In this document: one piece after another, positions 10,466 through 62,321 of the stretch | Position numbering within the stretch: position 1 is the stretch's first letter | Layout of the letters: each line of letters opens with the position of its first letter | Origin: Candidatus Hinthialibacter antarcticus | GTDB lineage: Bacteria > Hinthialibacterota > Hinthialibacteria > Hinthialibacterales > Hinthialibacteraceae | Reading direction: 5' to 3' | Assembly (NCBI GenBank): GCA_030765645.1 | Contig: JAVCCE010000054.1 | Coordinates: 3,568 to 67,567 of the forward strand | DNA length: 64,000 nucleotides | The notes under the pieces: generated by a model | Database searches by the model: none | Told to the model about the DNA's origin: nothing | Seen by the model: the letters and a program-made list of their open reading frames with translations, nothing else | Made by a program: the position numbers and the translations under genes

Positions 10466-11752
10466 TTAAGCTAAGGTCCAGGGCTTGCGATAGGCGCGGC
10501 CTAAGAGCGCGTTTGCTTCAGGGTCGTCGATGATGGTTTCCGTATCGGGGTTCCAGCGAATTTTTCGATTGAGCAGCATTGTGATTTCGCCTAAATGCCC
10601 GACGCTGATGGAACGGCAGCCGGTTTCGGCGGGGCAGATGGTTTCCTGGCGGCTTTTTACGCAGTCCAGAAAATTCTGGAAATGGTCGCGGCTTTGATAC
10701 AGGCGCGTATCGTTTGGCCCGATGCAGTCTTTTTTTAACAAGTTTTCGTCTGATGCTTCGATGGCGCCTCGATTGACCCAAACCCAGCCATTCTCGCCGA
10801 TCCACTTTGTTCCGCCCCGGTTTGAACTCGAGATGTTAATGGTGACGCCGGTTTTATATTTGCAGACAAAACTGTAACTCGTAGCGGTGTCATACAAACC
10901 TTCGCGGGGATACTCGGCGCTGCCGCTAATTTCAACCGGCCCGGTTTGGTCGTAGCCCATGCCCCAGTGGGCAATGTCGATATGGTGGCCCGCCCAGTCT
11001 GTGAGTTGGCCTCCTGAATAATCCATAATCCAGCGCCAGTCCCAGTGGCAGCGGTCTCTACCAAAGTCACAGTATTCACGCCAGGGCGCAGGGCCGAGCC
11101 AGCGGTCCCAATCTAAATCTTCAGGCGCGGGCTTCGTTGGTTTGAGGTCCGTTGAACCACCGCCGGGCAAGCCCACTTCGACTGTGTGGATCGCCCCGAT
11201 TTTCTCATTGCGCACCAGTTCGCACGCATGTTGAAAATTTCCTTCAGAGCGCTGTTGGCTGCCGGTTTGCCATACCCGTCCGTATCGGCGAACCGCGTCA
11301 CAAATGGCGCGGCTTTCGCGGATGGAGCGCGACAGCGGCTTTTCGCCATAGACATCAAGGCCTCTTTTCGCCGCAGCGATTGCGGGCAGCGCATGCCAAT
11401 GGTCGGGGACGGCGATCAAGACCGCGTCGAGGTCGTCGCGCTCAAGCAGTTCGCGAAAATCCACGTAAGCGGCGCAGTCGCTATTATCATTAAATTCGTC
11501 CACGCTTTGTTTCGCCCGTTTGCGATGCGAGCCGTCAACGTCGCAAACAGCCCGAATATATGCTTCGTCGCGGCGCATAAAATTGCGCATGTCGCCGGTG
11601 CCTTGCGAACCGACGCCGATGCAACCCATCACGATCCGGTTGCTAGGCGCGACGTTTCCAAATGTACCCATGGCGGAAGCCGAAATAAACATCGGCGCCG
11701 CGAATGTGGATTTCAAAAAGTTTCTGCGAGAAAAATTTGATTGATTCGGCAT
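10466..11752 (-). CDS. Gfo/Idh/MocA-family NAD(P)-dependent oxidoreductase with twin-arginine (Tat) signal
   Basis: N-terminal SRRNFLKSTFAAPMFISASA Tat motif. Rossmann MGCIGVGSQG. Family-typical EKPLS motif. Confidence 0.8.
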   Translation of the reverse strand: MPNQSNFSRRNFLKSTFAAPMFISASAMGTFGNVAPSNRIVMGCIGVGSQGTGDMRNFMRRDEAYIRAVCDVDGSHRKRAKQSVDEFNDNSDCAAYVDFRELLERDDLDAVLIAVPDHWHALPAIAAAKRGLDVYGEKPLSRSIRESRAICDAVRRYGRVWQTGSQQRSEGNFQHACELVRNEKIGAIHTVEVGLPGGGSTDLKPTKPAPEDLDWDRWLGPAPWREYCDFGRDRCHWDWRWIMDYSGGQLTDWAGHHIDIAHWGMGYDQTGPVEISGSAEYPREGLYDTATSYSFVCKYKTGVTINISSSNRGGTKWIGENGWVWVNRGAIEASDENLLKKDCIGPNDTRLYQSRDHFQNFLDCVKSRQETICPAETGCRSISVGHLGEITMLLNRKIRWNPDTETIIDDPEANALLGRAYRKPWTLA

Positions 11753-12002
11753 GAGGCGTTCTCCCTATATTGACTGAAAATGGCTTGACGAGTTGAAAAC
11801 AACAGTATTTCTATTTCACAAGTCATTATTCTATTATTACTCACCCAAAACCGTACTTAAGGTTCCAGAGCGTTTATCAATGAATTTATCAGAAGCGCTA
11901 TAAAACTTCAATTGAAGTCCACCGTTTTACGGACTGTCGTTTTTAAAAAATTAGACATCATGCAAGCGAGAATAGGTGGAGAATCCTAAAATACGCAAAA
12001 AT

Positions 12003-12266
12003 GGGGTTCTTCCGTAAATTGGATACTTTATCACAAATTGAACTGCGTTTTTTTTACGCTTTTTCGTAAATCCTTGATCCTTCGCTGCATCAGGCATGGG
12101 TACAACTCTGCTCGCTTCAGTGCGGGCTTTCAAGCCCTTATGCACAGGCGCTCCCAGAATTTTGCCCATGCCTGATTGGTTTGTCAGTTTTTGAAATCCC
12201 GGGGCCTGTTTCTGAATAAAAATCATGGCCATCCATCAATGTAGGTACTCACTTACCGGATGAACC
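12003..12266. repeat. Dispersed intergenic repeat family, copy A (full length, orientation 1: core GGCATGGGTACAACTCTG...CCCATGCC reads on + strand)
   Basis: Near-identical to the reverse complement of copy B (26771..27040) over about 260 bp. Core caggcatgggtacaactctgctcgcttcagtgcgggctttcaagcccttatgcacaggcgctcccag...cccatgcctga. The ORF-track 93-aa ORF 11951..12232 is a translation artefact of this element. Confidence 0.85.
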
Positions 12267-12379
12267 AAAAATGAAAAGGCAAAAACCACGTTTTCTTGTG
12301 ATCTTTGCCTTTTATATCTAAAACCGAAACGAACTCTACATCTTAAAAGGTCTGCCTAAAGATTCTCGCAGAATGGTTG

Positions 12380-14341
12380 TTATTGGCCCGTCGCGTCTCC
12401 GAGCATTTCATCATTTGATTTTCTTGGATAGAAATAGAAATGGCCATCTTCTCCGCCGACGAGTAAATCTTGAATCCCATCACCATTCCAATCGACGTTC
12501 GTGGGAGATGTTGTGTGTCCTTCCAGGCGATTGGGCGTGATATCGCCCCGGTAACGAAAAGCAAATGTATGCGCTTTTTCGCTCGTGTTTTCGTAATAGG
12601 AAATATTTCGCGTTTTCTCTGGAGAAGAGCGCGGGCTATTGATTAAGATATCAAAATCGTTATCTCCATCCCAGTCGACCAAGTTAATTTTTCTGCGACC
12701 GCTTTTGCCGGCAATCCCATTATTTAAGTTTAACGCATCTCCGTTTTCATCTAAGAAGATTCTCTTACCGGGCAGGGTGATTAACTGGTTCTCTTGTCTG
12801 CTTCTCTCAAAGAAACTGAGATAGCCTTCGTGATCGATCAAGATCAAATCATTCAGTCCGTCATCATTCAGGTCTAACACATTGGGGCGCGTTCGCCATT
12901 GGACGACGAGTTCTTTTTCATTCGGGTTCCACCAATTCCAGGCTGGCTTGGGAGGCGCATTTTGCCATTCCACTTCAATTGGTCGGGCCGCAGCCAGTGC
13001 AGGATTTGAGCGAGTTCCAATATTGCGGTACCAAATCATTTTCCCCACAATCGTATTCATCACGATGTCAGGCAGGCCGTCCATGTCCCAATCCGCCGCA
13101 TAAGGAACCGAGTAGCCCCATTTGGCTTCTGCAGGCCCTTGGATCGATAGGTTCTCGCCCGCCAGAATGCGGATCTCTTCGCCATTTACGCTCAGCCGTT
13201 TCGGCTCCGCCCATTTTGGATGCGGGTCTCCTCCCAGATTCTCGATCCACTCGATGAATCCCGCAGAGTTGCCGCAGATCAAATCTTCATCGCCGTCGCC
13301 ATCCCAATCAATGCTGCATGGGGTTGCCAACGCGCCGCATTTGACGTTCTCCGCCTGCTGTTGAAAGAACACCGGAGGCCGGAGTTGGGGCGCGCCGGTG
13401 TTGTCCTTGCCGGCATTTTCGATCCAAGCGACCCGCCCGTCTTCCTGGCCGACGACAATATCCATATCAGAATCTTGGTCCCAATCAAAAACGACAACTT
13501 GAAGCATTTGTAATTCCATCTTGATCTCTTTGCCATTGGCTTTTAGACGCTGTCCCGCCGAATAAACAGGGGTTTGTCTCGTTCCGGTATTTTCAAAAAA
13601 ACGGATACCGTCTAAAAATTCGCCACAAATTAAATCCATATCGCCGTCGTTGTCCCAATCGACTAAATTGGGCGAAGGGCAGCCGTAGACTTCTAATGGT
13701 TTGTCGCCGATTTGAATTTGGGTTGCCGCGCCATACTTGGGGGCGTCATTCGTCCCATTATTTTTCACCCAATACACATGTCCATGGATGGCGCCATGCG
13801 TCCAGTTGCCTTTTGCGTCGTATGCGTTGTCCCAGCCATAGTCACGCCAGTCGCTGGTTCCAATCAGAAGGTCGGTGATTTTGTCGCCGTCATAATCGGC
13901 GAATTTCCATTGATTTGCTCTGCCTGAATAGAACTCTTTTTCAAATGGAATTGGTTTGGGGTTTGAAAAAAGATTGTTGCGGAAGTCGTCGTGCATTTTT
14001 CCAGGTTCACAAATCACCTCTTTGTTATTGATATATGAAATTGTGAGGTTGTGTTTAGCGGAACCCAATCGCTTTCCAGGCAAAAAAACATCGGAACCGT
14101 TATTTTCAAAAAGATAGATTCCCTTGTAAGGAACATCGGCTGTAGACGCGAGCAAGTCATTATCACCATCGTTGTCCCAATCTATCGGAAACGGGACCGC
14201 CCACAGCCCGACCCCCAAGTCAACAACTAAGCCAGGGTGGTTGTATGCCATGCGGTTTTGCTCAAGAGGGATTTCTGCTTGAGAAAAAGCGGTCGCTTGT
14301 ATGCTTAAAACGAAGGCCAGCGCAAAAATATGTATCTTCAT
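12380..14341 (-). CDS. Secreted FG-GAP/VCBS-repeat (integrin-alpha beta-propeller-like) protein
   Basis: At least seven DxDxDGxxD calcium-loop repeats (DWDNDGDNDLL, DYDGDKITDLLIG, DWDNDGDMDLICG, DWDQDSDMDIVVG, DWDGDGDEDLICG, DWDMDGLPDIVM, DWDGDNDFDILIN, DWNGDGIQDLLVGG). Signal peptide from MKIHIFALAF (start 14341, AAGG RBS). Confidence 0.65.
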   Translation of the reverse strand: MKIHIFALAFVLSIQATAFSQAEIPLEQNRMAYNHPGLVVDLGVGLWAVPFPIDWDNDGDNDLLASTADVPYKGIYLFENNGSDVFLPGKRLGSAKHNLTISYINNKEVICEPGKMHDDFRNNLFSNPKPIPFEKEFYSGRANQWKFADYDGDKITDLLIGTSDWRDYGWDNAYDAKGNWTHGAIHGHVYWVKNNGTNDAPKYGAATQIQIGDKPLEVYGCPSPNLVDWDNDGDMDLICGEFLDGIRFFENTGTRQTPVYSAGQRLKANGKEIKMELQMLQVVVFDWDQDSDMDIVVGQEDGRVAWIENAGKDNTGAPQLRPPVFFQQQAENVKCGALATPCSIDWDGDGDEDLICGNSAGFIEWIENLGGDPHPKWAEPKRLSVNGEEIRILAGENLSIQGPAEAKWGYSVPYAADWDMDGLPDIVMNTIVGKMIWYRNIGTRSNPALAAARPIEVEWQNAPPKPAWNWWNPNEKELVVQWRTRPNVLDLNDDGLNDLILIDHEGYLSFFERSRQENQLITLPGKRIFLDENGDALNLNNGIAGKSGRRKINLVDWDGDNDFDILINSPRSSPEKTRNISYYENTSEKAHTFAFRYRGDITPNRLEGHTTSPTNVDWNGDGIQDLLVGGEDGHFYFYPRKSNDEMLGDATGQ

Positions 14342-14497
14342 TTTATACCTTGTCCTTTTGTTTATATTCAACATCTTCATTTAAGATATAGGTTCGTGTG
14401 AACATCCGCAATGTTTAAAACCTCTAACCAGAAAGGCAGCGGTATTGAGGGCAGTGAGTTTTTTCGTCATGCTTTTATCCTTGTTGAATATATGAGG

Positions 14498-22488: not shown

Positions 22489-23850
22489 TTAATGAGAATG
22501 CCCGCCAGAGGCGAACGCCTCTTTTTCCATTTCCGCTTTCAAGGCGAAGCCGCCTTCTGAGACATAGACCTGGCCGGGCTTAAGGCCGGAGACGATTTCT
22601 ACTCCAACTTTATTGGTCCGACCGATCTCGACGAATTGCGGCTCGAACAAGTCTTCATGCTGAACAAAAACGGCCGGTTTGTTTTCGATGGTTTGAATGG
22701 CTGTTTTGGGTACGTAGACAGAGACGGGGAATGTGTCGGCGGCAATCAAGCCATTAACGAATGACCCGGGCCGCAAGACGCCAGTCGGATTATCAACCAC
22801 AACGCGGGCGGTGGCCGTGCGCGTGTGCGTATCCAAAACAGCGCTGATGTATGAAATGGTTCCCTTCGTTTGAAAATCCCCAAAATTAAAAAAGATTTCG
22901 GCAGTTTGCCCATTGCGGACAGAAGAAAGATTGGCTTGATAGAGCGTGAAATTCACCCAAACTTTCTTTAAATCAGCGATGGTAAACACGGAGGTCTCGT
23001 CTTTGACGAACTCTCCGTGTGTGAGGTGTTTTTCTATCACTTGACCTTCAAAAGGCGCGCGGATTTCATAACGCGTTAAGAGGTCATCCGGTTGAGTGGG
23101 AATCTGCTTAATCGCCTCTTCTGAAAACCCTACTGCATGAAGTTGTTGTTCCGCGGCGGTGACGTTGATCCGCGCTTCGGCCAATGTTTGTTTTGATGAA
23201 AGATAATCTTGCTCGGCGGATATCTTTTTCTCCCACAACGCTTTTTCCCGGTTAAAATTGGTTTGGGCTAACTTATACCGTTCCAACGTAGCCAGGTAAC
23301 TTGATTTGAGCGTCGCGAGTTCCCGGCTCTCAAGCACGGCGAGGAGTTCATTTTTTGCCACAGCAGCCCCCAACGATTTGTGGACTTCTTTCACGACTCC
23401 GGGAATGCGCGGGATAATGTGACTGACTGAATCGGGGTTAATAACCACTTCTCCAGAGACTTCGATATGCTTCGTCAGCATCCCCGGCGACGCGATCGCC
23501 GTCTTAATATTGAATTCTTCCAAAGTTGCAGTTGAAAAACGGATAGCGTGTTCCTCATGGTCATCCTCACCGGCGTGAGAATCGCTTTCTTCGTGCCCGT
23601 CTTCATCCGAGTGAACGTCTACATCTGAATGCTCATGGCCTTCGTGCTCTTCTTCATCCGCATGAACGTCTACATCTGAATGCTCATGGCCTTCGTGCCC
23701 TTCTTCATCCGCATGCTCAAGTTCAAGTGGCGCCTTTGAGAAAGCAGCATAGGAATAGCCATTCGTTGGATTAAACAAAACGATTGCGACGGAGAGAAAA
23801 ATCCCCAGGAAAACGGTCATTGCTGAAATAAAGATCATTTTCTTATTCAT
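22489..23850 (-). CDS. RND efflux membrane fusion (periplasmic adaptor) protein with His-rich N-terminal tandem repeat
   Basis: HlyD/CzcB-like barrel-sandwich and beta-barrel region. N-terminal HADEEGHEGHEHSDVDV repeated twice, a probable metal-binding segment. 8-nt overlap with the upstream OMF gene. Confidence 0.8.
   Translation of the reverse strand: MNKKMIFISAMTVFLGIFLSVAIVLFNPTNGYSYAAFSKAPLELEHADEEGHEGHEHSDVDVHADEEEHEGHEHSDVDVHSDEDGHEESDSHAGEDDHEEHAIRFSTATLEEFNIKTAIASPGMLTKHIEVSGEVVINPDSVSHIIPRIPGVVKEVHKSLGAAVAKNELLAVLESRELATLKSSYLATLERYKLAQTNFNREKALWEKKISAEQDYLSSKQTLAEARINVTAAEQQLHAVGFSEEAIKQIPTQPDDLLTRYEIRAPFEGQVIEKHLTHGEFVKDETSVFTIADLKKVWVNFTLYQANLSSVRNGQTAEIFFNFGDFQTKGTISYISAVLDTHTRTATARVVVDNPTGVLRPGSFVNGLIAADTFPVSVYVPKTAIQTIENKPAVFVQHEDLFEPQFVEIGRTNKVGVEIVSGLKPGQVYVSEGGFALKAEMEKEAFASGGHSH
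23590..23725. repeat. About 2.3 copies of a 54-bp in-frame tandem repeat inside the adaptor gene, encoding His/Asp/Glu-rich HEGHEHSDVDVHADEEE units
   Basis: Direct repetition visible: cttcatccgagtgaacgtctacatctgaatgctcatggccttcgtgctc / ttcatccgcatgaacgtctacatctgaatgctcatggccttcgtgccc. Confidence 0.8.
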
Positions 23851-26750: not shown

Positions 26751-26770
26751 TTTTCACCTATCAAATTTTA

Positions 26771-27040
26771 GGTTCATCCGGCAAGTGAGTACTTACATTG
26801 ATGGATGGCCATAATTTTTATTGAGAAACAGGCTCCGGCATTTCATAAATTGACAAACCAATCAGGCATGAGTGGAACTCTGGGAGCGCCTGTGCATAAG
26901 GGCTTGAAAGCCCGCACTGAAGCGAGCAGAGTTGTACCCATGCCTGATACAGCGAAAGATCAAGCATTTACGAAAAAACGTCAAAAAAACGCAATTCAAT
27001 TTGTGATAAAGTATCCAAATACCGGAAGAACCGAATTTTA
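26771..27040. repeat. Dispersed intergenic repeat family, copy B (full length, orientation 2)
   Basis: ggttcatccggcaagtgagtacttacattgatggatggccat...caggcatgagtggaactctgggagcgcctgtgcataagggcttgaaagcccgcactgaagcgagcagagttgtacccatgcctgatacagcgaaagatcaag... The ORF-track ORF 26805..27155 is an artefact of this element. Confidence 0.85.
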
Positions 27041-29929
27041 TTTGATTACTTTAAACGAATATTCGCCGGACGGCGTAAAGAAAACCAGTTTCTCATTTTC
27101 TGTCCGAACCAATATAACATCTCTCTGTCTGCTGAGTTCTTTTCCATTTAACTGAACTTGATCCAAGTTCGCAGCCGGAACATAAACATGAGCGGTGGTA
27201 TTCGCTGGTATCCTGACGCTTAACTCAAACATCGCTTCCGAATTTTTCCATTCGCTGCCAATCGCGCCATGAATACTTTCAACCGACGCCTTCACCCAAT
27301 GGATGGGTTCCTGTTCGGGGTTCGAGCCATATTCAGGCGGATGAGGATCAATGATGATTTCCTTGTAGCCGGGCGACGCGCAGTCGATCCCCGCCAGCGA
27401 CTGGAACATCCATTCACACACCGCGCCGAAGGCGTAATGGCTGAATGAGTTCATCGACACGCTGGCGAAACCGTCTTCTTTGGTATAGCTGTTCCAGCGC
27501 TCCCAAATGGTGGTGGCGCCGTTTTCAACTTCATACCCCCATGATGGATATCGGCGGCTTTGCAACAACCGGGCGGCCAAATCGTTATTGCCGTGACGGG
27601 TCAGCACCGTCAACAGTGGACGCGTCCCCAAAAACCCGGTGCTCATGCGAACGTCGTTTTCATTGATGAGTTCCACAAGGCGGTCGCTCGCGGCTTGCGT
27701 CTGTTCTTCCGAAACCAATCCGGCGAACAGCGCCAATGAATAGGAGGTTTGATAATCATGCTTGATGCGCCCGTCATCACTTAGGTACTTTGCGGCAAAT
27801 GCGTTTTTGATTGATGAATACAATTCACGATACTGTTTTGCGTCATCGCTTTCACCAATCGCGTCCGCCATTTCGGCCATCATTCGCGCGGATAGCGCAA
27901 AATAAACCGTATCGACATACTCAACCGGCGCAGTGTCGCCCAGCGCCAGCCAATCGCCCCAACCGTTGCCGATATTCACGCCCAAAAAGTCAGGGCTGTT
28001 GGTTTGGCGAAACTGCATGAAGCGCGTCATCGACTCGTAATGCCGTTCGATAACGCGCACGTCGCCGTACACCTTATATATTGTCCAGGGACAAATGATC
28101 CCCGCATCCATCCAGGCGGTCGCGAAGCCGCGATGGGGTTTGCCGTGCATCATCGGATAGGGCGCATAATCGGGATACGCCCCATTGGGCAATTGGGCTT
28201 CTTCTAAATCATCCAGCCATTTAGTAAAGAAGGCGGCGACGTCAGCGTTATAGCTCGCCGTTCGGATATAGGTTTGCGCATCACCCGTCCAGCCAAAGCG
28301 CTCGTCGCGTTGCGGGCAATCAGTGGGGACTTCAAAAAAGTTCGACCGCTGCGTCCAGACGATATTTTTAAACAATTGATTGACCATCGGATCAGAACAC
28401 GCAAACGAACTGGTCAGCGGCGTGTCGGAATGAATGGCGATTCCCGTGACGGTATTCAGGCTGGGCTTTTCCGTCAGGCCCGTTAATTCAACATATTGGA
28501 ATCCATGATAGGTAAAACGCGGCTCCCAGATTTCGGGCTGGCTGTCGCCGCGCAAGATGTAAGTATCCGTCGCTTGCGCCCGGCGCAGGTTTTCGGTCAT
28601 CAAGCGCCCGTCAGGGTGCAGCATCTCACCGTGGCGAATCACAATCGTATCGCCGCGCTTGCCTTTCACCTTGATCTGTACAACGCCGGAAAAGTTTTGC
28701 CCCATATTAAAGATAAAGGTTCCCGGAGAAGGCTCGGTGATCTCAATCGGTTTTATCTTCTCCGTCGGACGGATGGGGACTGACGGATAGGCAGTGATTT
28801 GCTTTGGTTCAATAAAACCAAACTCCATTTCGCGCTTACCTGCTTGGTCCGTAAACACGGCCTTGGTCGAACCATTATCTTTCGCGGGGATAGCACTCTC
28901 CCACTGCGCGTCGTCAAAGCCAGGCTGGTTCCAACCAGGTTGTTCCAGCCGCGCGTCATAGGTTTCACCCATGAGCATGTCGGCCTTAACAATCGGCCCG
29001 GTGCGAGTTTTCCAGCTGGCGTCGGTTGCGATGATTTCGCTGGTTCCGTCTGTATATTCGATCTCAAGTTGCGCCAAGAGCGCCGGGGTCTTTCCATAAA
29101 TATTGCGCCCGCTTTGGTTGGGGCCATAACCGACCAGCAAGCCATAGCCGAGATAACCGCTATACCAGCCGTCAGCGACGATGGCGCCAATCGCGTTTTG
29201 TTTAGACTGGACCAGGCTTGTCACGTCAAATGCGTTGTAGTAAACCCGTTCGCGATAATCTGACCAGCCGGGGGTAAACATTTGGTCGCTAACGCGTTTT
29301 CCGTTGATGCTCAGTTCATAGATTCCCAACGCAGACGCATAGGCCATGGCGCGTTTGATTGGCTTGTTCGCGACAAACGTCTTTCGGTAATATCGCGCTG
29401 GCGGAAGAACCATATTCTCTCTTGACGCCGACATGGGCGCATCATCTTTAAAACTGGTCCACTCCGCTTTCCAGTCTTCATTCGACAACAACCCCATTGA
29501 CCAATGCGCGGCGCTGCTCCAATGAGACGCGCGACCATCCTGCCCCCAGACGCGCACTTTCCAGAAACAATGTTGACGCGATTGTAGTGGAGCGCCTTGG
29601 TAGGCAATGTTGACGCTTTGGCTGCTTTCGGTTTTTCCTGAATCCCAAAGATCAAACTGGTTTCGATGCAACAATTCATCGCTCGAAGCAACGCAAATTT
29701 GATAGGCGGTTTGCAGGGCGCCATTTTCGTCAGAGTCCAACTTCCAACTTAAGCGCGGCTGGGTTTCATCAATGCCAATTGGGTTTACCAGATACTCGGT
29801 GCGCATGTCTTGCGCCGTGAGCGCGTCCGCCGCTGCCATCGCTCCTAGATAACCGAGAAAAATAAAAAAAACGGCTGCTGTTTTTTGAAGAGAAAAATTC
29901 ATCGTTCGCCCCATTGTTCTATATTTCAT
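27038..29929 (-). CDS. Secreted GH78 alpha-L-rhamnosidase
   Basis: N-terminal LTAQDMRTEYLVNPIGIDETQPRLSWKL and HCFWKVRVWGQDGRASHWSSAAHWSMGLL (GH78 N-domain). Six-hairpin catalytic domain follows. Signal peptide after alternative start MNFSLQK (29902). Confidence 0.8.
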   Translation of the reverse strand: MKYRTMGRTMNFSLQKTAAVFFIFLGYLGAMAAADALTAQDMRTEYLVNPIGIDETQPRLSWKLDSDENGALQTAYQICVASSDELLHRNQFDLWDSGKTESSQSVNIAYQGAPLQSRQHCFWKVRVWGQDGRASHWSSAAHWSMGLLSNEDWKAEWTSFKDDAPMSASRENMVLPPARYYRKTFVANKPIKRAMAYASALGIYELSINGKRVSDQMFTPGWSDYRERVYYNAFDVTSLVQSKQNAIGAIVADGWYSGYLGYGLLVGYGPNQSGRNIYGKTPALLAQLEIEYTDGTSEIIATDASWKTRTGPIVKADMLMGETYDARLEQPGWNQPGFDDAQWESAIPAKDNGSTKAVFTDQAGKREMEFGFIEPKQITAYPSVPIRPTEKIKPIEITEPSPGTFIFNMGQNFSGVVQIKVKGKRGDTIVIRHGEMLHPDGRLMTENLRRAQATDTYILRGDSQPEIWEPRFTYHGFQYVELTGLTEKPSLNTVTGIAIHSDTPLTSSFACSDPMVNQLFKNIVWTQRSNFFEVPTDCPQRDERFGWTGDAQTYIRTASYNADVAAFFTKWLDDLEEAQLPNGAYPDYAPYPMMHGKPHRGFATAWMDAGIICPWTIYKVYGDVRVIERHYESMTRFMQFRQTNSPDFLGVNIGNGWGDWLALGDTAPVEYVDTVYFALSARMMAEMADAIGESDDAKQYRELYSSIKNAFAAKYLSDDGRIKHDYQTSYSLALFAGLVSEEQTQAASDRLVELINENDVRMSTGFLGTRPLLTVLTRHGNNDLAARLLQSRRYPSWGYEVENGATTIWERWNSYTKEDGFASVSMNSFSHYAFGAVCEWMFQSLAGIDCASPGYKEIIIDPHPPEYGSNPEQEPIHWVKASVESIHGAIGSEWKNSEAMFELSVRIPANTTAHVYVPAANLDQVQLNGKELSRQRDVILVRTENEKLVFFTPSGEYSFKVIK

Positions 29930-36813: not shown

Positions 36814-37010
36814 TTTTCTCTCGACAAAAATGTTAAGTGCGATTCAGCATTATATAAATGATGCAACGAATCGAAGGCCGATTCTACTGCTACATCCACA
36901 CATCATTCTGGTAAAACACAAAACGAATCGATATAAGCGATGAAACGCTCCGCTCGACATGAACGGGGCGCTTTCTATTGCACGTCTTTCTCCCAGAAAC
37001 TGACAGTAAA

Positions 37011-37193
37011 TGACAAACCAAATTTGGCATGGATGCGACTCTGGGAGCGCCTGTGCATGAGGGCCTGAAAGCCCGCACTGAAGCGAGCAGAGTGGCGCCC
37101 ATGCCTGATACAGCGAAGGATCAAGGATTTACAAAAAAGTGTCAAAAAAACGAAATCCAATTTGTGATAAAGTATCCAAATACCGGAAGAACC
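37011..37193. repeat. Dispersed intergenic repeat family, copy C (orientation 2, left module truncated)
   Basis: tgacaaaccaaatttggcatggatgcgactctgggagcgcctgtgcatgagggcctgaaagcccgcactgaagcgagcagagtggcgcccatgcctgatacagcgaaggatcaag...ccggaagaacc. The ORF-track ORF 37029..37259 is an artefact. Confidence 0.8.
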
Positions 37194-37354
37194 ATTAAAG
37201 TGTATATAGAGAATCAAGACTTAGAAAAGGAAGATGACTTTCGAATAAGTGAATCGTAAGGCGGAGAAATTGATTGACGTTACTGAAAATCATACTGCAT
37301 CAGGGCTTTTGGCTCGCAAGGCTTCTCAATGGCGTACCCTGGAGGATATTTAGA

Positions 37355-48848: not shown

Positions 48849-49004
48849 CATTATGCTAAAATAGGTTGAGAGATTTTATAGTGGTTGCCAGAAAACTGTG
48901 CGGATTGAGTTTTCATCACTGTATCTATCGCTGAGCCCCTGCCTGCGGCAGGCAGGCTGCGGGCGCGCTTAACGCACAGTATTTTGTCAATCGCTCTAGA
49001 TTGA

Positions 49005-51812
49005 ATGAAAGTGGACGGAATGAAACAGTTTGCATTGTCGGCTCTGGTTTCTTTTTTTTACCTGTACATTGCCATCGCTGTGACAGCGCAAACTGTTGAT
49101 ATCCAATCAGTCATTGATTCGATTCAGAAACATGAGTTGGCCGAAGCAGAAGAAATCCTACGCCAGTCTCAAGGCCCACTGGCCGGCCCTGAACAAAAAC
49201 AACTGCACACTTTCATCAGTCAACATTCCCCGCAAGGCGATTGGATTTCTCTATTGCGTTTGATCGCTGAAAAGGCGGAGGGCAACCCGGAGTTTTTATT
49301 TTTCTTATCGCAGGCGTTATGGCGAACGGGGGATGAAAGCGGAGCGCTCAAAGTCAGCGGCGAAGCGATGGCCGCCGCGCCCATCGATTTGAATTTGCAA
49401 TACAAGTGCGCCGCCATCGCGCGAACCCTAGGCCGCTTAGATGTAGCCAAACAACGCATTGGACATATTCTTGAACAAGACGCCAATCACCCTGATACAT
49501 TGTTTCTGCAAGGCAGTATCTGGGCGGAAGAAGGCGAAAATGAAAAAGCGAAGAACGCGCTGCTGCAAGTTATTCAATCGAACCCCAAGCATTTTCGGTC
49601 GCTGTTCGAGTTAGGAAAACTCGAAACCCGGCTGGGCAATGATGAGCAGGCGGTTCAATATTTGAGCGAAGCCATCAATGCGTATCCGTTCTTTCGAGAA
49701 GCGTATGCTGCGTTGCGTACGCCATTATCGCGCTTGGGCCGCAAGGACGAGTTCTCGCGCTTGCAAGAGATTATTCAGACAATGAGAGCGTGGAACCCCG
49801 ATCAATATCGTCAATTGCGCTACATGTATGAAAACGCATTCACGATTCCAATCGAACAACGCACGGTTCTTGCGCAAGAGTTGCTGTCGATTCGCCAGTT
49901 TGAAAAAGCCATGCAGTATTTAACGAACCTGAATAAAAATAATTTGCTGAACGACCCGCTGCGAATGGCGCTGGCGCAATTGCATTACCAAAAAAAAGAG
50001 TTCCCGGATTGTCTTTCAATTCTTGGCGAAATTACAGATTCAACCATCACGCAAACAGAGCGCTTTGTTGGAATAAAAGGGTGGTCGCTTTTGGGGACAG
50101 GAGATACTGAGAGCAGCCTGGATTTATACAATCAATACAAAGAGAAATTTCCAGGCTCGCCAAACTTCGCTGCTTTAGGCGCCGCATTAAGCAAGATAGA
50201 TAAGAAAGAAAATACCGGGCAATCGACTTTAAATGTTCAAGCAAAAAAGACATTTCAATTTAGGGATGCGTCTAATGAATCCGGCCTGGACGCCTTTCAA
50301 CACCGGATGGGGCACAAAGATAAACGCTGGATCATTGACGCAATGGGGTCTGGCGTTGCGGTCGGCGATTATGACAACGACGGCGACGACGATGTCTATT
50401 TTGTGAATGGCAGGCCCGACTTGAATGAAGATGATGGTCAATGGCGCAACGGTTTGTTTCGCAATGACGGCGGGCGTTTTGTTGATGTGACAGAGCGAGC
50501 GCATGTCGGCGACACGGGCTGGGGCATGTGCGCTGTGTTTGGCGATGTCAACAACGACGGCTGGCTTGATTTGTTTGTTGGCAACTTCGGCGCTGATGTT
50601 CTATACATGAACAACGGCGACGGCTCATTTACCGAACGTACCCAAGACGCGGGGGTGAGCCATAACGGCTACGCAGCGGCGGCGGTATTCGGTGACGTCG
50701 ACCTCGACGGCGACCTCGACCTCTATGTCGGCAACTATGTTGAATTCGATCCCAAACAACACGGCAGCCTGCGCGACCGCTATCATGGCATAGACGTCAT
50801 GCGAGGGCCGATGGGGCTTAATTATCAGAATGACCTTTTGTACTTCAACAAAGGCGATGGAACATTTGAAGACGTTTCTCAGCAAAGCCAAATCAATATT
50901 TCGGAAGGCCGCGCGATGGGCGCGTCAATGGCTGACTTTGATCTCGACGGCGACCTCGACCTCTATGTGGCGAACGACTCAACCTATAACCATGTGTTGC
51001 TCAATAACGGTAAAGGGCGCTTTGAAGATTCCAGTTTCGTTTCCGGCGCTGCTGTGAACGAATCAGGCCGCGAAGGCGCCAGCATGGGCGTCGCAACCGG
51101 CGATTACAATAACGATGGGCTGATTGATATTTTTGTGACGGCTTACGAACAAGAGCCTGATACGCTTTTTCAAAACAAAGACGGCGTACTTTTCACTGAT
51201 GTAACCGGCCCGTCGAAACTCACATCGCCATCCCATTGGTTGACCACGTGGGGAACAGGCTTTTGTGATTTTGATTCGGACGGTTTTTTAGATATTTATA
51301 CAGTCAACGGGCATACCTACCCCCAGGTTGCCCAGCTCAACAACGACCGGAGTTATACCCAAGGCGTTTCGTTTTATCAAAATATAGATGGCGAACATTT
51401 TCGTTCTGAGAAGTTAGAATTTGACGCGGCAAGAACCATCGCCGGCCGCGGAAGCGCCTTGCTCGATTATGACAACGACGGCGATATGGATATCGTCATC
51501 AATTGCATCGACGATTCGCCCCGGTTATTGGAGAACCAATCAAGCCAAGGCAATTGGTTGAAAGTGAAATTAAACGGAACATCCGCCCAGACATTCGGAG
51601 TTCGCGTCTTTATCGAACACAAAGGCCAACAGTGGACGCGTACCGTCGATGGCGGCTCAAGTTATTTATCTCAAAACTCTCAAACGCTTCACTTCGGTCT
51701 TGGCGAAATAGACCAAGTTGAAAAAATTACAATCCACTGGCTTACCCGGCCTCCGCAAACGTATTCGGATGTTTCAACCAATCAAACTTTGATCGTAACC
51801 ACACGGTCCTAA
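49005..51812 (+). CDS. Secreted TPR-repeat + FG-GAP/VCBS-repeat + C-terminal ASPIC/UnbV-domain protein (CRTAC1-like)
   Basis: N-terminal TPR-like helical repeats. FG-GAP loops (DYDNDGDDDVYFV, GDVNNDGWLDLFVGN, GDVDLDGDLDLYVGN, DFDLDGDLDLYVAN, DYNNDGLIDIFV, DFDSDGFLDIY, DYDNDGDMDIVIN). C-terminal UnbV_ASPIC-like GNWLKVKLNG...GVRVFIEHKG. Alternative start 49020. Confidence 0.7.
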   Translation: MKVDGMKQFALSALVSFFYLYIAIAVTAQTVDIQSVIDSIQKHELAEAEEILRQSQGPLAGPEQKQLHTFISQHSPQGDWISLLRLIAEKAEGNPEFLFFLSQALWRTGDESGALKVSGEAMAAAPIDLNLQYKCAAIARTLGRLDVAKQRIGHILEQDANHPDTLFLQGSIWAEEGENEKAKNALLQVIQSNPKHFRSLFELGKLETRLGNDEQAVQYLSEAINAYPFFREAYAALRTPLSRLGRKDEFSRLQEIIQTMRAWNPDQYRQLRYMYENAFTIPIEQRTVLAQELLSIRQFEKAMQYLTNLNKNNLLNDPLRMALAQLHYQKKEFPDCLSILGEITDSTITQTERFVGIKGWSLLGTGDTESSLDLYNQYKEKFPGSPNFAALGAALSKIDKKENTGQSTLNVQAKKTFQFRDASNESGLDAFQHRMGHKDKRWIIDAMGSGVAVGDYDNDGDDDVYFVNGRPDLNEDDGQWRNGLFRNDGGRFVDVTERAHVGDTGWGMCAVFGDVNNDGWLDLFVGNFGADVLYMNNGDGSFTERTQDAGVSHNGYAAAAVFGDVDLDGDLDLYVGNYVEFDPKQHGSLRDRYHGIDVMRGPMGLNYQNDLLYFNKGDGTFEDVSQQSQINISEGRAMGASMADFDLDGDLDLYVANDSTYNHVLLNNGKGRFEDSSFVSGAAVNESGREGASMGVATGDYNNDGLIDIFVTAYEQEPDTLFQNKDGVLFTDVTGPSKLTSPSHWLTTWGTGFCDFDSDGFLDIYTVNGHTYPQVAQLNNDRSYTQGVSFYQNIDGEHFRSEKLEFDAARTIAGRGSALLDYDNDGDMDIVINCIDDSPRLLENQSSQGNWLKVKLNGTSAQTFGVRVFIEHKGQQWTRTVDGGSSYLSQNSQTLHFGLGEIDQVEKITIHWLTRPPQTYSDVSTNQTLIVTTRS

Positions 51813-51821: not shown

Positions 51822-51870
51822 GTGGCATGGGTGCAACTCTGCAAGAACTCTGCTCGCGTTAGGGCTTTTA
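51822..51870. repeat. Dispersed repeat family, fragment D (duplicated left arm only)
   Basis: tggcatgggtgcaactctgcaagaactctgctcgcgttagggctttt. The same left-arm sequence as copy E starts 95 bp further on and, like it, is preceded by atgtgg. Confidence 0.6.
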
Positions 51871-51916
51871 CTTTCTGGATGCTTTTTTTATACATTGAAT
51901 TGAGATTTCGCTGCAT

Positions 51917-52094
51917 GTGGCATGGGCACATCTCTGCTCGCTTCGGTGCGGGCTTTCAGGCCCTTTTGCACAGGCGCTCCCAGAGTTGCACCCATGCCTG
52001 AATTGGTTTGTCAATTATTGATACGCCGGGATATGTTTTCGTAATCAAAATCATGACCATCCATCAATGGAGGCACTCGCTTACCGGATGAACC
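51917..52094. repeat. Dispersed intergenic repeat family, copy E (orientation 1, lacks the distal approx. 90-bp module)
   Basis: gtggcatgggcacatctctgctcgcttcggtgcgggctttcaggcccttttgcacaggcgctcccagagttgcacccatgcctgaattggtttgtcaattattgatacgccgggatatgttttcgtaatcaaaatcatgaccatccatcaatggaggcactcgcttaccggatgaacc. Confidence 0.85.
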
Positions 52095-52213: not shown

Positions 52214-52305
52214 AAGAAGAATGAAGTAAGCGAGGGTTTTGATGCAGCGTGATCAAATCGTAACAATATCCCACAGCGCAGGTTGACAATTTAGTGAGGA
52301 ATAAA

Positions 52306-53139
52306 ATGTATCGTGTATTTCAATTGTTGTTTTTATTTTTTGCTGTAATTCACTTAGGAGCGAGCAGCGATTTCACTCCAATACAAATGCCTGAGCGTGG
52401 AATTTGCGCTCACCGGGGAGCAATGAATACTCACCCGGAGAATACATTGCCTGCCTTTCGTGAAGCAATAAGACTCGGCGTGCAGATGATCGAATTCGAT
52501 GTGCAGGCGTCGAAAGATGGTCATTTAGTTGTTATGCATGACTCTACGGTTGATCGCACGACAGATGGAAACGGCGAAGTCTCTGAACTTACATTAAGTG
52601 AACTTCGTAAATTAGACGCCGGAATAAAGAAGGGAGAACAGTTCAAAGGAACGCGAATTCCGACTCTCAGAGAAACCTTGCAGATTATGCCAGAGAATAT
52701 TTGGCTGAATATCCATTTGAAAGATGGAGAGAAAATAGTTGCAAGTGTTGCCAAAATGATTTTGAAAGAAAAACGTCAGCGCCAGTCATTTCTTGCATGC
52801 AGTATAATGGCGGCGCAAAGCGCTCGAGAGATTAGTCCTGGTATACAAATTTGCAACATGGACAGGCAACGGAATACCATGGATTATGCAAATGAAACGA
52901 TTCATCATAAGGCGCAGTTCATTCAGCTTCTTGGAGACGGCGCCGTTTTCTCTGAAGTCATATCCAAATTAAGAAAACATAAAATTCGCATAAACTATTA
53001 TCGCGCAGACACTCCCGAAATCTGTTGTGAATTACTGTCCGCAGGAATTGATTTCCCGCTTGTAAACGACCCTGGAGCAATGATGACCAAAATTCAAACC
53101 GAGTTAGGAATCAAGCCATTGGTTCCCATTTATCGATAG
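52306..53139 (+). CDS. Secreted glycerophosphodiester phosphodiesterase (GDPD/UgpQ family)
   Basis: ATG 52306 with GAGGA RBS. Signal peptide. GDPD catalytic motifs ICAHRGA...ENTLPAF and IEFDVQASKDGHLVVMHD. Confidence 0.8.
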   Translation: MYRVFQLLFLFFAVIHLGASSDFTPIQMPERGICAHRGAMNTHPENTLPAFREAIRLGVQMIEFDVQASKDGHLVVMHDSTVDRTTDGNGEVSELTLSELRKLDAGIKKGEQFKGTRIPTLRETLQIMPENIWLNIHLKDGEKIVASVAKMILKEKRQRQSFLACSIMAAQSAREISPGIQICNMDRQRNTMDYANETIHHKAQFIQLLGDGAVFSEVISKLRKHKIRINYYRADTPEICCELLSAGIDFPLVNDPGAMMTKIQTELGIKPLVPIYR

Positions 53140-53190
53140 CATGTTTCAGAATTAATTTGGTTCAGGTTTTTGGAACCGCACAAGAACGAT

Positions 53191-53358
53191 CAGGCATGGG
53201 TACATCTCTGCTCGCTTCGGTGCGGGCTATCATGCCCTTATGCACAGGCGCTCCCAGAGTTGCGCCCATGCCTGAATTGGTTGGTCGATTTTTGATATGC
53301 CGAAATACGTTTTCGGAATCAAAATTATGATTATCCAGCAATATAATTACTCACTTGC
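53191..53358. repeat. Dispersed intergenic repeat family, copy F (orientation 1, divergent)
   Basis: caggcatgggtacatctctgctcgcttcggtgcgggctatcatgcccttatgcacaggcgctcccagagttgcgcccatgcctgaattggttggtcgatttttgatatgccgaaatacgttttcggaatcaaaattatgattatccagcaatataattactcacttgccagatggacc. Confidence 0.8.
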
Positions 53359-53403
53359 CAGATGGACCATAAAAGTGATTTTTGAATTTGCGCGGCGCCA
53401 TCC

Positions 53404-54405
53404 TTATGTTAACGGGCCGTAGCGCGTCCCCAGATCAGGCGCAATTTGTTTGCCCGTTTCGACTAACGCTGTGTGTTGTTGGGGCGTCAGAGGTTGATAT
53501 TGCTTGGCGATTTCTGTGTTTTGAATGGCCTGCTCAACAGTATAAGGCCCGACAACGGCGACTTCGACTCGTTCTAGATCAAGAGCGTACGCCATCGCTT
53601 GCGGCATGCGCTCCTGAGGAGTCACGCATCCGACATATCCTTTACGGTGATTGGGGAAACCGCCCTTGATCCCGACATAAACCTTCATCGCCGCCAGCGC
53701 CACATTGTGCTTCTGGGCGGCGGGCAATATCTTCTTGTGGAAATCATAGGTAAACGCATCGGCGTAATTGATTACAGTCATGGCCACATCGATCTGACCG
53801 GTCTCGATCATGCGGACAACCCGGTCGGGCCGACAGTGTGACGTCACTCCAATAAAGCGGATCTTGCCTGCTTCTTTTTGTTTGAGGAGATAGGCGAGTA
53901 TCCCGTCATTGGCCAACACCTTATCGATGTCTTTGCCGCCGACATGATGAATGTGAACCAGGTCAATATAATCGGTTTTGAGTTGCCGCAGCGATTCACT
54001 CAATAGCGACTCGGCTTTTGATCCGCTATCGGTCCATGCCTTGGTCACGAGAAAGAGTTTGTCGCGCTGTTGGGGAACAATATGGCTCAATATTTCTTCT
54101 GCATTGCCGTAACTTCTGGCTGTATCAATATAGTTAACGCCGCGGTCAATGGCAGCCCTGAAAATTTTAATGCCTTCCTGTACGTCAACGGGGCCTTCAC
54201 CTACCGGGGCAGTGCCAAGCCCTAAAATCGACACTTTGGCTCCAGTGCGGCCTAATACGCGCATCGGCATGGCGTCGGAGGGGGAGCCTTCATCGGCCTT
54301 GGCCATTTGAGCGCTCAGGGTAAGGGTTGCGCCCACGCCTGACGATTGTTTTAGAAACTCGCGTCGATCTAAATGATTTGGCAAACTCTTTTGGTTGAAG
54401 CTCAT
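53404..54405 (-). CDS. Aldo/keto reductase family oxidoreductase with Tat signal
   Basis: N-terminal DRREFLKQSSGVGATLTLSAQMAKA (RR motif). AKR TIM-barrel motifs (YIDTARSYG, LVTKAW...). Confidence 0.75.
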   Translation of the reverse strand: MSFNQKSLPNHLDRREFLKQSSGVGATLTLSAQMAKADEGSPSDAMPMRVLGRTGAKVSILGLGTAPVGEGPVDVQEGIKIFRAAIDRGVNYIDTARSYGNAEEILSHIVPQQRDKLFLVTKAWTDSGSKAESLLSESLRQLKTDYIDLVHIHHVGGKDIDKVLANDGILAYLLKQKEAGKIRFIGVTSHCRPDRVVRMIETGQIDVAMTVINYADAFTYDFHKKILPAAQKHNVALAAMKVYVGIKGGFPNHRKGYVGCVTPQERMPQAMAYALDLERVEVAVVGPYTVEQAIQNTEIAKQYQPLTPQQHTALVETGKQIAPDLGTRYGPLT

Positions 54406-54534
54406 TGGCTCTCTCCTGCATGATTCAATTTCTCATTGACAAATACTACCGCACCGTTAATTGCTTTTCAAACGAATTGTTCCATAAACTGAATGCAGAT
54501 TGATATCTGAATGGATACCAAACGTGATCGCATT

Positions 54535-56559
54535 TCAGTGTTTTTGGATCGCGTCTTTCCAGCCAAGTTGGCTAGCCAGGTTGAGGCTCCAATCATAGTT
54601 TTCGTCGACGGCGCCCATGAGTTGGACCTTTGTTGGGTAAAGAAAACCAACCACCTGGGGCAGATCGGTCACCCGCAAGCAGTTTAACATTTCAATCGCC
54701 GGCCCGGTCCCGTCCGTTTCGCCAGGGGCGTTTTGTGTGGCGGGCGGGTTTTGAAGATAGACCGACTCAAGCCGCCCGTCTAACAACGCCGCGTACATCG
54801 CGACGGCCGCCATCTCGCCGCGCGCGGCAATCGCAATTTTGTCAGGGTCAACTTCGTCTATCGACCGCAATGCTTCAATACAGCGCAACACGTCATACAC
54901 CCTCATCGACGCGACCGTGCGCCCCGTCCACGCCGAGGCGCGCCTCACGTGCCACTGCAAACCCTGGCTCCAACTCGTCTCGCCCACGCCGCGAACCTGT
55001 AAGTAGGCGCGCGTCCATTCAGGGCGCAAGCCGTTTGAGAAACTCTCTGACGCCCAGCGCTTTTCGTTGGGGTTGCGCAAAACGAGCAGTACGGGTTTTT
55101 TCTCCGTTTTGGTTTCTTTCCAGTTCCATTCAAACGTCAGGCGAAATCCTTCTTCAGGGACGAAAGTGTAATCATTCATGCCGCTGGTTTCGTTGCTTCG
55201 CGAGCGGTATTCCATTCGAAGCGACAAGTCGCCAGGCGATTTCGGGAACGCATTAAACGTATTGTCTTTCAGAAACTCAATCACATGCGATTTATGCTTG
55301 TTCCAATCTTCTACCGTTTTTAACGCAGGCGGCGTTGCGACTTTGACAAAGGTTTCTTGAATGGTCTTTGTGCGGTCGTCCGCAGGCGGGCCGTCAACAT
55401 ACACCCTGAGTTCATCTTCGCTTAAAAGCGAATCTTCTGATTGGTCGACATCGCCGATTTCGTTTGGCGAAACGTCTTTGCCCATCAGGTGTTTCATCAT
55501 AAATGAAAAGATTTGAGTGCGCGACTTTTCGTGATACGAATGACCGCCCGGCGTTACGACAAGATTGATGTTGTCTTCGGCGCCGTATAATTCATAAATC
55601 TTTTTCATATACGCCACGCTCTGTTTAACGCCCTCTAATGAGTTGAGGCCGTCACGGTCGGCCTGACCAATCAAAAGAGGCCGGGGCGCGATCAGAGCGC
55701 CGATGTCATGATAGTCAATCAGTTTGGTGTTGATCGGCGTCATACAGTCACAGTGCCCGTCGACCATGCGCTGGCGAATATGCGACTCGAGCGTACAACA
55801 CCCGCACACCGGGGCGACCGCTTTGACGCGGCGGTCAATCGCGCCGATATACCAACTCTGCGAGCCGCCGCCCGAAATGCCCGTGACGCCAATGTTGTCT
55901 GGATCGACATAATCGAGAGAACATAACAAGTCGATACCGCGGATGCCGTTCCAGAGTTCGACGCCGCCCGGGGTGTAGCCGCGGCTATACCATTGAAACT
56001 GGCCTTCGGCGTAACATCCCCAATGGCTGCCATACACTTCGCCCCATTGAACGGTCTCAAAGACCAGCGCGACGAAACCCAGTTCAGCGAATTTACGTGG
56101 ATGCGGCTGGTAGCTGACTTTCTGAGTTCGCGAATGTCCGCAGGGGTATAAAATCGCTGGCGCTTTGTGGTTGATGGTATTGGGCACATATAAATTGGCG
56201 GGGACATAAAGATTGGGCAGCGACTCATAATAGAGTTTGATGATCTTGTAATTATCTTTTTGAATCACGCCGATCTCTTTGATGTTCAAAGGAGGTCGCT
56301 CGCCGCTCAAGGGGACGTCATGCAGGCTGAGCATTCCGGTCAGTTCTTGATATCGCTGTTCGCGCGCGCGTTCCCAGTCTTCTAGCGTGTTGATGTCAGC
56401 GAGTGAATTGTGAGTAATCTCGCTGGCGGCGCGCATCAGATATTGTCGGATGTTATTGCTCTGGTCAAATATGGGTTTGGTTTCAATTTGAAGCGGTTTG
56501 CTTTGCGCTAACATAATAACATTCAATACCAACAACGAAATGATGATTTTCTTATACAT
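54535..56559 (-). CDS. Secreted alpha/beta-hydrolase (acetyl-xylan-esterase / S9-peptidase-like), probably two-domain
   Basis: Signal peptide from MYKKIIISLLVLNVIMLAQS. Nucleophile elbow GISGGGSQSW in the middle. The C-terminal half has a second alpha/beta-hydrolase-like region. Confidence 0.55.
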   Translation of the reverse strand: MYKKIIISLLVLNVIMLAQSKPLQIETKPIFDQSNNIRQYLMRAASEITHNSLADINTLEDWERAREQRYQELTGMLSLHDVPLSGERPPLNIKEIGVIQKDNYKIIKLYYESLPNLYVPANLYVPNTINHKAPAILYPCGHSRTQKVSYQPHPRKFAELGFVALVFETVQWGEVYGSHWGCYAEGQFQWYSRGYTPGGVELWNGIRGIDLLCSLDYVDPDNIGVTGISGGGSQSWYIGAIDRRVKAVAPVCGCCTLESHIRQRMVDGHCDCMTPINTKLIDYHDIGALIAPRPLLIGQADRDGLNSLEGVKQSVAYMKKIYELYGAEDNINLVVTPGGHSYHEKSRTQIFSFMMKHLMGKDVSPNEIGDVDQSEDSLLSEDELRVYVDGPPADDRTKTIQETFVKVATPPALKTVEDWNKHKSHVIEFLKDNTFNAFPKSPGDLSLRMEYRSRSNETSGMNDYTFVPEEGFRLTFEWNWKETKTEKKPVLLVLRNPNEKRWASESFSNGLRPEWTRAYLQVRGVGETSWSQGLQWHVRRASAWTGRTVASMRVYDVLRCIEALRSIDEVDPDKIAIAARGEMAAVAMYAALLDGRLESVYLQNPPATQNAPGETDGTGPAIEMLNCLRVTDLPQVVGFLYPTKVQLMGAVDENYDWSLNLASQLGWKDAIQKH

Positions 56560-56696
56560 GTTTCCGAATCTCCTCACAAGTTAACACGCGATATTCATTC
56601 CTTGCCAATCCAGATAGCGTTCGGACGATGATTGCCCTGATCCTATCACAAAACACATGAAGCCATCTCAAAAATTTCTGGTCTTTCGTTGCGTAC

Positions 56697-62295: not shown

Positions 62296-62321
62296 AAATC
62301 CACTAAGAGATTCATCAAAAT

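Follow-up and report, generated by a model that had tools for sequence, protein, structure and literature searches.

A dispersed family of probable MITEs with an unusually conserved central hairpin in Candidatus Hinthialibacter antarcticus

What is the nature of the repeat that recurs between the genes of Candidatus Hinthialibacter antarcticus, and how does it spread? We analyzed a stretch of 64,000 nucleotides from this organism (hereafter the window) and propose that its dispersed repeats are a family of MITEs, non-coding, moved in trans and decaying after insertion, a reading to which we assign a probability of roughly 0.8. Terminal inverted repeats (TIRs), a target-site duplication (TSD) of fixed 8-bp length and the lack of coding capacity together argue for a MITE mobilized in trans by a DDE transposase. 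The family is previously undescribed and its host belongs to a candidate phylum; the kind of element is well known. Its main scientific interest is an unusually conserved central hairpin; otherwise the element is ordinary in kind and the interest modest. The host belongs to the candidate phylum Hinthialibacterota; the species was described from Ace Lake, Antarctica (PMC9324843). The window's gene content (sulfatases, rhamnosidases, FG-GAP/ASPIC and GxGYxYP proteins) agrees with that species description, which makes no mention of transposases, repeats or MITEs (PMC9324843).

Copies were sought in the window by repeat finding, BLAST of copy A, multiple alignment, and nhmmer with whole-element, core-only and end-only models. 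Seven loci comprising eight pieces of one family were recovered, with no further copies in the 64-kb window. The core 18-mer GCACAGGCGCTCCCAGAG, allowing up to two mismatches, occurs seven times in the window against 0.00 expected in shuffled sequence, and the terminal motif occurs eight times against 0.03 expected. A first-pass annotation of this DNA had described a dispersed, strictly intergenic repeat family of at least eight copies in both orientations; we recovered the same pieces at nearly identical coordinates, and in the ORF map of the window long ORFs flank every copy and all copies are intergenic. The features are as follows.

12005-12266, + strand: copy A, full-length putative MITE of 262 bp (left TIR 12005-12028, core hairpin 12093-12172, right TIR 12243-12266)
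11997-12004 and 12267-12274: TSD of copy A, AAAAATGG and AAAAATGA, 7/8 match
12093-12172, no strand assigned: reference core, an imperfect hairpin, GGCATGGGTACAACTCTG CTCGCTTCAGTGC GGGCTTTCAAGCCC TTAT GCACAGGCGCTCC CAGAATTTTGCCCATGCC
26771-27032, - strand: copy B, full-length putative MITE (core 26865-26944), 91% identical to A
27033-27040 and 26763-26770, read on the - strand: TSD of copy B, TAAAATTC and TAAAATTT, 7/8 match
37004-37193, - strand: copy C, with left TIR, left module, core (37026-37105) and about 20 nt of right module; between divergent genes
about 51822-51872, + strand: fragment D, a degenerate left half of the core with a small internal duplication
51876-52094, + strand: copy E, 232-bp subfamily, with left TIR minus its first ~15 nt, core (51919-51998) and intact right TIR
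53189-53368, + strand: copy F, with core (53193-53272), right module and right TIR, without left module; between convergent genes
about 56660-56795, + strand: copy G, with a left proximal module remnant and intact distal right module and right TIR
62154-62298, - strand: copy H, with core (62207-62286) followed immediately by the distal right module; right TIR degenerate

Full copies measure 258-263 bp, typically about 262 bp, and a subfamily measures 232 bp. In the common orientation the modules run from a left TIR of about 24 bp through an A/T-rich left module, the 80-nt imperfect hairpin core and a right module to the right TIR. The left end of a full copy reads GGTTCTTCCGGTATTTGGATACTT... 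and the right end ...AAGTACTCACTTACCGGATGAACC. Alignment of left with right ends gives imperfect TIRs of about 24 bp with the consensus GGTTCWTCCGGTAnnTGnnTACTT. What had initially been taken for module ends (...CCGGATGAACC and ...CCGGAAGAACC) are these TIRs, bordered by 8-bp TSDs, an arrangement that the first-pass annotation missed. The core, which can also be written GGCATGGGTACAACTCTG-CTCGCTTCAGTGC-GGGCTTTCAGGCCC-TTAT-GCACAGGCGCTCC-CAGAGTTGCACCCATGCC, forms a long stem interrupted by asymmetric internal loops; its folding energy as DNA is -24.7 kcal/mol (z = -4.7), and for the whole element z is about -4.4 on each strand.

That the copies are modular and differ by deletions, as first described, is correct in general and needs refinement for E, G and H. 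Copy C has indeed lost its right end, so its TSD cannot be scored. Copy E, said likewise to lack one end, is short of only the ~15 nt of its left terminus; in addition it carries the 31-nt internal deletion that marks the 232-bp subfamily, which is intact in contig L017. The centre of the G core (56697-56728) is deleted as claimed, with about 46 nt gone, and the core is in addition inverted relative to its flanks. The deletion in H, estimated at about 50 bp, measures about 45 bp and removes the first part of the right module; the left module of H is also lost. Fragment D begins about 10 bp past the stop codon of the ORF at 49005-51812 and adjoins copy E in a tandem arrangement. Both B and H lie between same-strand genes: B is about 6 bp from the stop codon of the upstream gene and 21 bp from the start of the downstream ORF, and H ends about 24 bp before the start of the ORF at 62322-63434.

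The mark of transposition is found at the ends of the elements. Inspection of the copy ends for TSDs, proposed with the original description, revealed register-specific 8-bp duplications: 10 of the 11 copies with both ends are bordered by A/T-rich TSDs of this length. They are perfect in L008 (AAAAAAAT), L013 (TTAATTCT), L017 (TTTTTTTA) and the L018 dimer (ATGTTTTT), match at 7/8 positions in window copies A and B and in L011, as well as in the L022 copy and L031 found later, and match at 6/8 in L012. The exception is L030, a full-length copy with no TSD at its flanks. Among the first eight two-ended elements, 59/64 flank bases match in register; shifts of 1-3 nt leave only 31-36/64 matches, and mismatched pairs of elements match on average at 3.5/8 flank bases, none reaching 7/8. 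Such a TSD is the footprint of a DDE transposase whose cuts are staggered by 8 bp, and a preference for A/T-rich 8-mers would explain why the elements land in intergenic spacers, in terminator tails and beside stop codons.

The elements themselves encode nothing. Full-length copies have stops in all six frames and no frame open throughout. The ORF that runs through copy B has only 11 matches among 5.8 billion proteins, all of them 66-91 aa long, without a Pfam domain and with only the core-encoded peptide in common. Three of these (P9L94_04295, _00275 and _07580) are annotated hypothetical proteins of the NCBI MAG and sit on other contigs of that MAG (355, 170 and 97 kb). The earlier judgement that ORFs over the copies are artefacts agrees with both the six-frame stops and the restriction of the matches to the core peptide. 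A small peptide encoded by the core was considered and rejected, the ATG being lost in the copies of a second MAG (below) and the frames varying between copies. Since they encode nothing, the elements must be mobilized in trans by a transposase that recognizes their TIRs.

How widely is the family distributed? The original description named confinement to this locus, for example by a local segmental duplication, as the result that would overturn it; at least 14 further contigs of the same population bear copies, as do a close relative and a second MAG. A core-anchored pattern, run against metagenomes, returned 14 short contigs, 13 of them from JGI sample Ga0222672 (3300022859) and the other from Ga0222663. 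Window positions 11608-12953 are matched at 100% identity by one of the Ga0222672 contigs; the remaining contigs have unrelated flanks and many terminate within the repeat. Contig L030 also bears a copy. A contig from the type-MAG sample has a copy at its end and carries a host esterase gene followed by phage portal, capsid and connector genes. The TIR pattern matched twice in viral contigs: one match is this copy, a genuine one on the border between host and prophage, with no transposase, and the other, in coding DNA of 60% GC, is a chance match. The core pattern had no match in the viral contigs, and a full copy had no BLAST match among plasmid and phage records. The close relative (L022; ENA CAOS20-1 scaffolds), whose proteins are 88-98% identical, has a remnant at the F site. 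It also has a full, TSD-flanked copy elsewhere, at a locus whose ortholog lies outside the window. Finally, a scan of GTDB representatives revealed one other MAG, CAZKYC01, with seven copies. It derives from SRP141376, on which a literature search returned nothing relevant; its GC content is 52-55% in comparison to 48.7% in the window, and the one gene common to both encodes a protein about 49% identical. A single 22-mer match in Streptomyces from the same scan is attributed to chance, as the family profile gives no match there. About 59 kb of sequence from more distant relatives contains no copies, and the loci fetched for sites A and B via the intervening gene are not syntenic and contain none.

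These data bear directly on whether the copies could be a local segmental duplication or an assembly artefact restricted to the contig. The high density, seven loci in 64 kb, speaks for it. However, the same population has copies amid unrelated flanks on no fewer than 14 other contigs, which shows that this is not a local duplication; copies also occur in independent assemblies of other samples and in two other organisms, and the flanks differ from copy to copy, each with its own TSD. We regard this explanation as refuted. Of the six pattern-bearing window copies, one reappears among the 13 pattern-bearing Ga0222672 contigs, a capture-recapture input that crudely, and with very wide uncertainty, suggests a copy number on the order of 80 per genome. 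The expectation that the family is a major genome-wide feature is plausible.

After insertion the copies shrink. The left junction of the F site is common to the window and L022, and L022 keeps only 46 bp, its core being shorter by another ~59 bp and ~80 bp being gone from the right end. A shared junction with different deletions indicates that the insertion predates the split between the window organism and L022 and that copies shrink by internal deletion. Decay by internal deletions is observed in C, F, G, H and the L022 F-site remnant. The core of copy G, which matches the strand opposite to its flanks and lacks its centre, has been flipped and deleted, as expected of recombination or template switching inside a palindrome. 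There are three tandem pairs (D-E, L018a/b and M4a/b of the second MAG), and the L018 dimer, bordered by a perfect TSD, must have moved as a unit.

Do the copies also reshape gene order, as the suggestion of a possible recombination substrate would have it? A GDPD protein gene lies between copies E and F; its product matches, at 100% identity, a protein of the NCBI MAG that bears the name Candidatus Hinthialibacter antarcticus. A GDPD-AKR-AXE1 block (window 52237-56528) that is conserved in L022 is bracketed by E and G, with different neighbours in L022. Window positions 3562-52237 are missing at the corresponding L022 position. The differing neighbours of the E/G block and the full-length L030 copy without a TSD favour the suggestion; against it, no breakpoint falls exactly on a copy, and the edges of the block in L022 hold no remnants. 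A role as recombination substrate is thus weakly suggested.

Which transposase moves these elements? Duplications of 8-9 bp are made by IS6, IS256, IS1595 and IS1. The 14-bp inverted repeat of IS6 is GGCACTGTTGCAAA and has no resemblance to the ends of the window elements. Those ends start with GGTTCTTCCG or GGTTCATCCG; the second MAG has GGCTCATCCG. Among published ISL3-family elements, ISArsp7 has an inverted repeat beginning GGCTCTTCGCGG... and an 8-bp direct repeat (PMC6305408), and in Microcystis the ISL3 elements, like their MITE, have ITRs that open with GGCTCTTCG and repeats of 8 nt (PMC11448079). ISL3 is among the families that transpose via a circular intermediate with abutted ends; 8-bp repeats are likewise made by IS6 (PMC7986276). 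The ISL3 likeness comprises 7-8 of the first 9 nt, in comparison to these two published examples only, with no match beyond. Judged by the ends and the 8-bp duplication, the most likely source of the transposase is an ISL3-family insertion sequence, an evenly balanced lead rather than a demonstrated membership; the parent would then be an insertion sequence bounded by GGTTCWTCCGGTA... and making 8-bp TSDs. The sequences examined contain no autonomous element or transposase with matching ends and no TIR occurrences outside copies, and L033 contains no transposase. Likewise, an all-against-all ORF comparison over about 320 kb of loci gave orthologs only and no multicopy proteins.

The most conserved part of the element is its core. 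In a MITE it is unusual for the TIRs to be less conserved than an internal segment, a point against our reading. Conservation was measured on copies retrieved without the core pattern (window A, B, C, E, F and H, the L022 copy, L030 and L031). Mean pairwise identity in this set is 0.913 for the core and 0.934 for its centre, 0.663 and 0.779 for the left and right modules, and 0.715 and 0.804 for the left and right TIRs; per-column Mann-Whitney comparisons of the core with each other region give p values from 1e-14 to 4e-4. For core columns outside the search pattern, identity between the second MAG and the window copies is 0.872, and for the adjacent 40 nt on the two sides only 0.41 and 0.54. 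In that MAG the hairpin persists while the flanks and TIRs are unrecognizable and the flanks are not common among its own copies, with the exception of faint module remnants. We conclude that the core is under constraint. The element may require it in cis, for example as a hairpin that is bound or extruded and so promotes pairing of the two ends; only lineages keeping the core would then go on spreading. We prefer this element-level constraint on a cis-acting hairpin as the explanation of the conservation; a core with such a cis role in transposition is not known from ISL3 elements. Hairpin-templated repair or gene conversion may contribute as well.

Alternatively, the core could be a functional unit kept by host selection at individual loci, such as a structured RNA (for example, an intercistronic or 3' stabilizer or a processing hairpin) or a protein-bound DNA hairpin, with the MITE only as its vehicle. 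This would account for a core conserved above TIRs and modules, and for its remaining whole in copies of the second MAG that have unrecognizable and mutually different flanks and TIRs, in an organism set apart by its GC content and by the low identity of the one shared protein. The internal loops of the core are invariant. Three outer-stem pairs show compensatory changes: the covariation is modest, with 95.7% of cells paired in comparison to 94.5% in shuffles, and none of 500 shuffles attains the observed value. The central 44 nt are nearly invariant and hence uninformative on structure. Compensatory changes in a DNA palindrome, however, can also arise by hairpin-templated repair, and part of the apparent invariance stems from retrieval with the core pattern, which the copies retrieved otherwise and the columns outside the pattern correct for. 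Copies B and H, between same-strand genes and no more than about 25 bp from the start codon that follows, are probably transcribed; yet there is no orientation bias relative to transcription (two sense, two antisense, one convergent and two divergent contexts). A strand-specific RNA is rejected on the ground that variable wobble-type changes number 18 and 16 on the two strands, with no G.U signature of either. Rfam gives no match in the window at gathering thresholds and, at E values up to 10, nothing inside copy A and two weak matches in the neighbouring terminator; the tRNA/tmRNA scan returned none, and promoter and terminator scans over the copies show no excess relative to shuffles. A sigma-54 promoter in the arm GGCATGGGTGCAAC was dismissed by inspection, its GG-to-GC spacing being too short. 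Moreover, the core is dispensable at some loci, being lost or damaged in G, at the L022 F site and in L030, where its centre is mutated. We consider it unlikely that the core is an independently selected module that rides on the MITE and outlives it, staying about 87-93% identical across two organisms while the transposon ends decay. If it were, the family would be a regulatory or structural element that a transposon has dispersed in a candidate phylum, and not plain selfish DNA. The host-selection reading is compatible with the copies being MITEs.

The palindromic core also invites a quite different reading, that of REP/BIME- or REPIN-like palindromes spread as single-stranded hairpins by a RAYT (Y1, IS200/IS605-type) transposase. 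The core is a long imperfect palindrome, the copies are intergenic and in both orientations, and the second MAG has "solo cores" that stop sharply where the palindrome ends and show neither a TIR nor a TSD. But Y1 transposition (IS200/IS605, REP/RAYT) leaves no TSDs, and the mobile unit in the window organism is the whole 262-bp element with its 24-bp TIRs and register-specific 8-bp TSD. The solo cores, too, retain remnants of the MITE proximal module; for example, GAAGCCATCTCAAAAAT is identical at 17/17 positions between L005, of the second MAG, and window copy G. No RAYT gene was noticed in a non-systematic look through the sequences examined. We judge this reading very improbable. REPs are 20-40 nt long, without TIRs or TSDs. 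Of the initial label "MITE/REP-like", the MITE half thus stands, on TIRs, the 8-bp TSD, the non-coding sequence and dispersal, and the REP half is not supported.

The family is of both biological and practical value. It is the first mobile element to be reported from the candidate phylum Hinthialibacterota, and its presence implies a DDE transposase, probably ISL3-like, that is or recently was active. With many contigs ending within a copy, the family explains breaks in the assembly, and it accounts for several spurious "hypothetical proteins" in the public annotation of Candidatus Hinthialibacter antarcticus. Copies mark sites of gene-order difference from the close relative, and the family profile can be used for masking and for strain typing in the Ace Lake time series. 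The conserved central hairpin is a testable candidate for a cis-acting transposition signal or for an exapted RNA or DNA element.

Finally, we compare the family with known repeat systems. REP, BIME and REPIN sequences are likewise dispersed intergenic palindromes, and the core-only copies of the second MAG are superficially alike, whereas the window elements are about 262 bp long and have TIRs and TSDs. ERIC/IRU of enterobacteria and the Correia/NEMIS elements of Neisseria share the intergenic location in either orientation, the imperfect palindrome of 100-300 bp and the size variants that arise when internal segments are cleanly lost or gained. Transcripts of neighbouring genes often include them as long hairpins, and their effects at the RNA level (RNase processing, promoters, IHF sites) have been demonstrated experimentally. 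Correia elements duplicate TA. The present family differs from both in sequence and termini and in its 8-bp duplication rather than the TA of Correia. The BOX elements of Streptococcus pneumoniae also have modules that are present, absent or duplicated between copies; their sequence is unrelated and they are without such a TIR/TSD architecture. The ISL3-family MITEs and ISArsp7 likewise have 8-bp TSDs and ends that begin GG(C/T)TC(T/A)TC; ISL3-derived MITEs, such as those of Microcystis aeruginosa PCC 7806, are similarly short, non-coding, multicopy and presumed to be moved in trans. In comparison to these, the sequence likeness of our elements is confined to the first ~9 nt of the end, and no cognate ISL3 transposase was found in the sequences examined; the host belongs to a candidate phylum, Hinthialibacterota, and the central 80-nt hairpin is better conserved than the termini.

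Relative to its close relative CAOS20-1 (L022), gene order in the window differs on either side of a conserved three-gene block, GDPD-AKR-AXE1 (52237-56528), which is flanked by MITE copies E and G. When window positions 3562 and 52237-56528 were compared with L022 4669-14084 (nucleotide identity 87-96%), this block was found to be separated from the aldehyde dehydrogenase/glutamine synthetase genes by approximately 1.7 kb in L022, whereas the corresponding separation in the window is 48.7 kb.

Directly adjoining MITE copy A is a strong intrinsic-terminator-like hairpin (12274-12313, - strand) for the gene at 12380-14380, and the 8-bp target of copy A derives from the T-tail of this terminator, illustrating the preference of the MITE for A/T-rich terminator tails. 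A full-length copy at positions 763-1035 of Ga0222672_1015414, a contig from the same population as the window, has intact TIRs, lacks a TSD, and carries several substitutions in the core centre, which is elsewhere invariant. Recombination between two copies could account for the absent TSD.

Two organisms carry tandem dimers of the MITE, and these dimers recur at loci unrelated to one another:

L018 403-889, tandem dimer
L004 3856-4275, tandem dimer
Window 51822-52094, tandem dimer

The first unit of the dimers lacks the right end. Because a perfect 8-bp TSD encloses both units of the L018 dimer, we conclude that this pair transposed as a unit.

We also observed a second small dispersed repeat, unrelated to the MITE and containing ...GATAGATACAGnnAnGAAAACTnAATCCGCACAGTnTTnTGGCAACCACTAT..., at the following positions in the window and the compared loci:

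Window 48877-48985
L012 999-1094, inserted within a MITE copy, between the core and the right module
L016 912-963, adjoining a MITE copy
L009 236-261

A different kind of repetition lies at 23589-23741, within the HlyD-like membrane-fusion gene 22489-23850; these three tandem 51-bp repeats (100%, 92%, and 61% identity) presumably encode an in-frame 17-residue protein repeat.

L026 922-3152, from a relative that is more distant (its GDPD is 68% identical), contains a Transposase_29 (PF21804) gene and a neighbouring HTH gene. This transposase gene is probably unrelated to the MITE family, since MITE copies are absent from 20.9 kb of that relative's sequence.

Three public Candidatus Hinthialibacter antarcticus proteins annotated as hypothetical, P9L94_04295 (P0248), P9L94_00275 (P0249), and P9L94_07580 (P0251), are spurious ORFs reading through MITE copies, as are window ORFs 11951-12232, 26805-27155, and 36975-37217.

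Finally, a viral-classed contig from the type-MAG sample (L033 1-8889, IMGVR_UViG_3300035698_020518) starts inside a MITE copy and continues through a host-like glucuronyl esterase gene into phage genes for the connector, major capsid, and portal. The contig probably marks a prophage border in Candidatus Hinthialibacter antarcticus.
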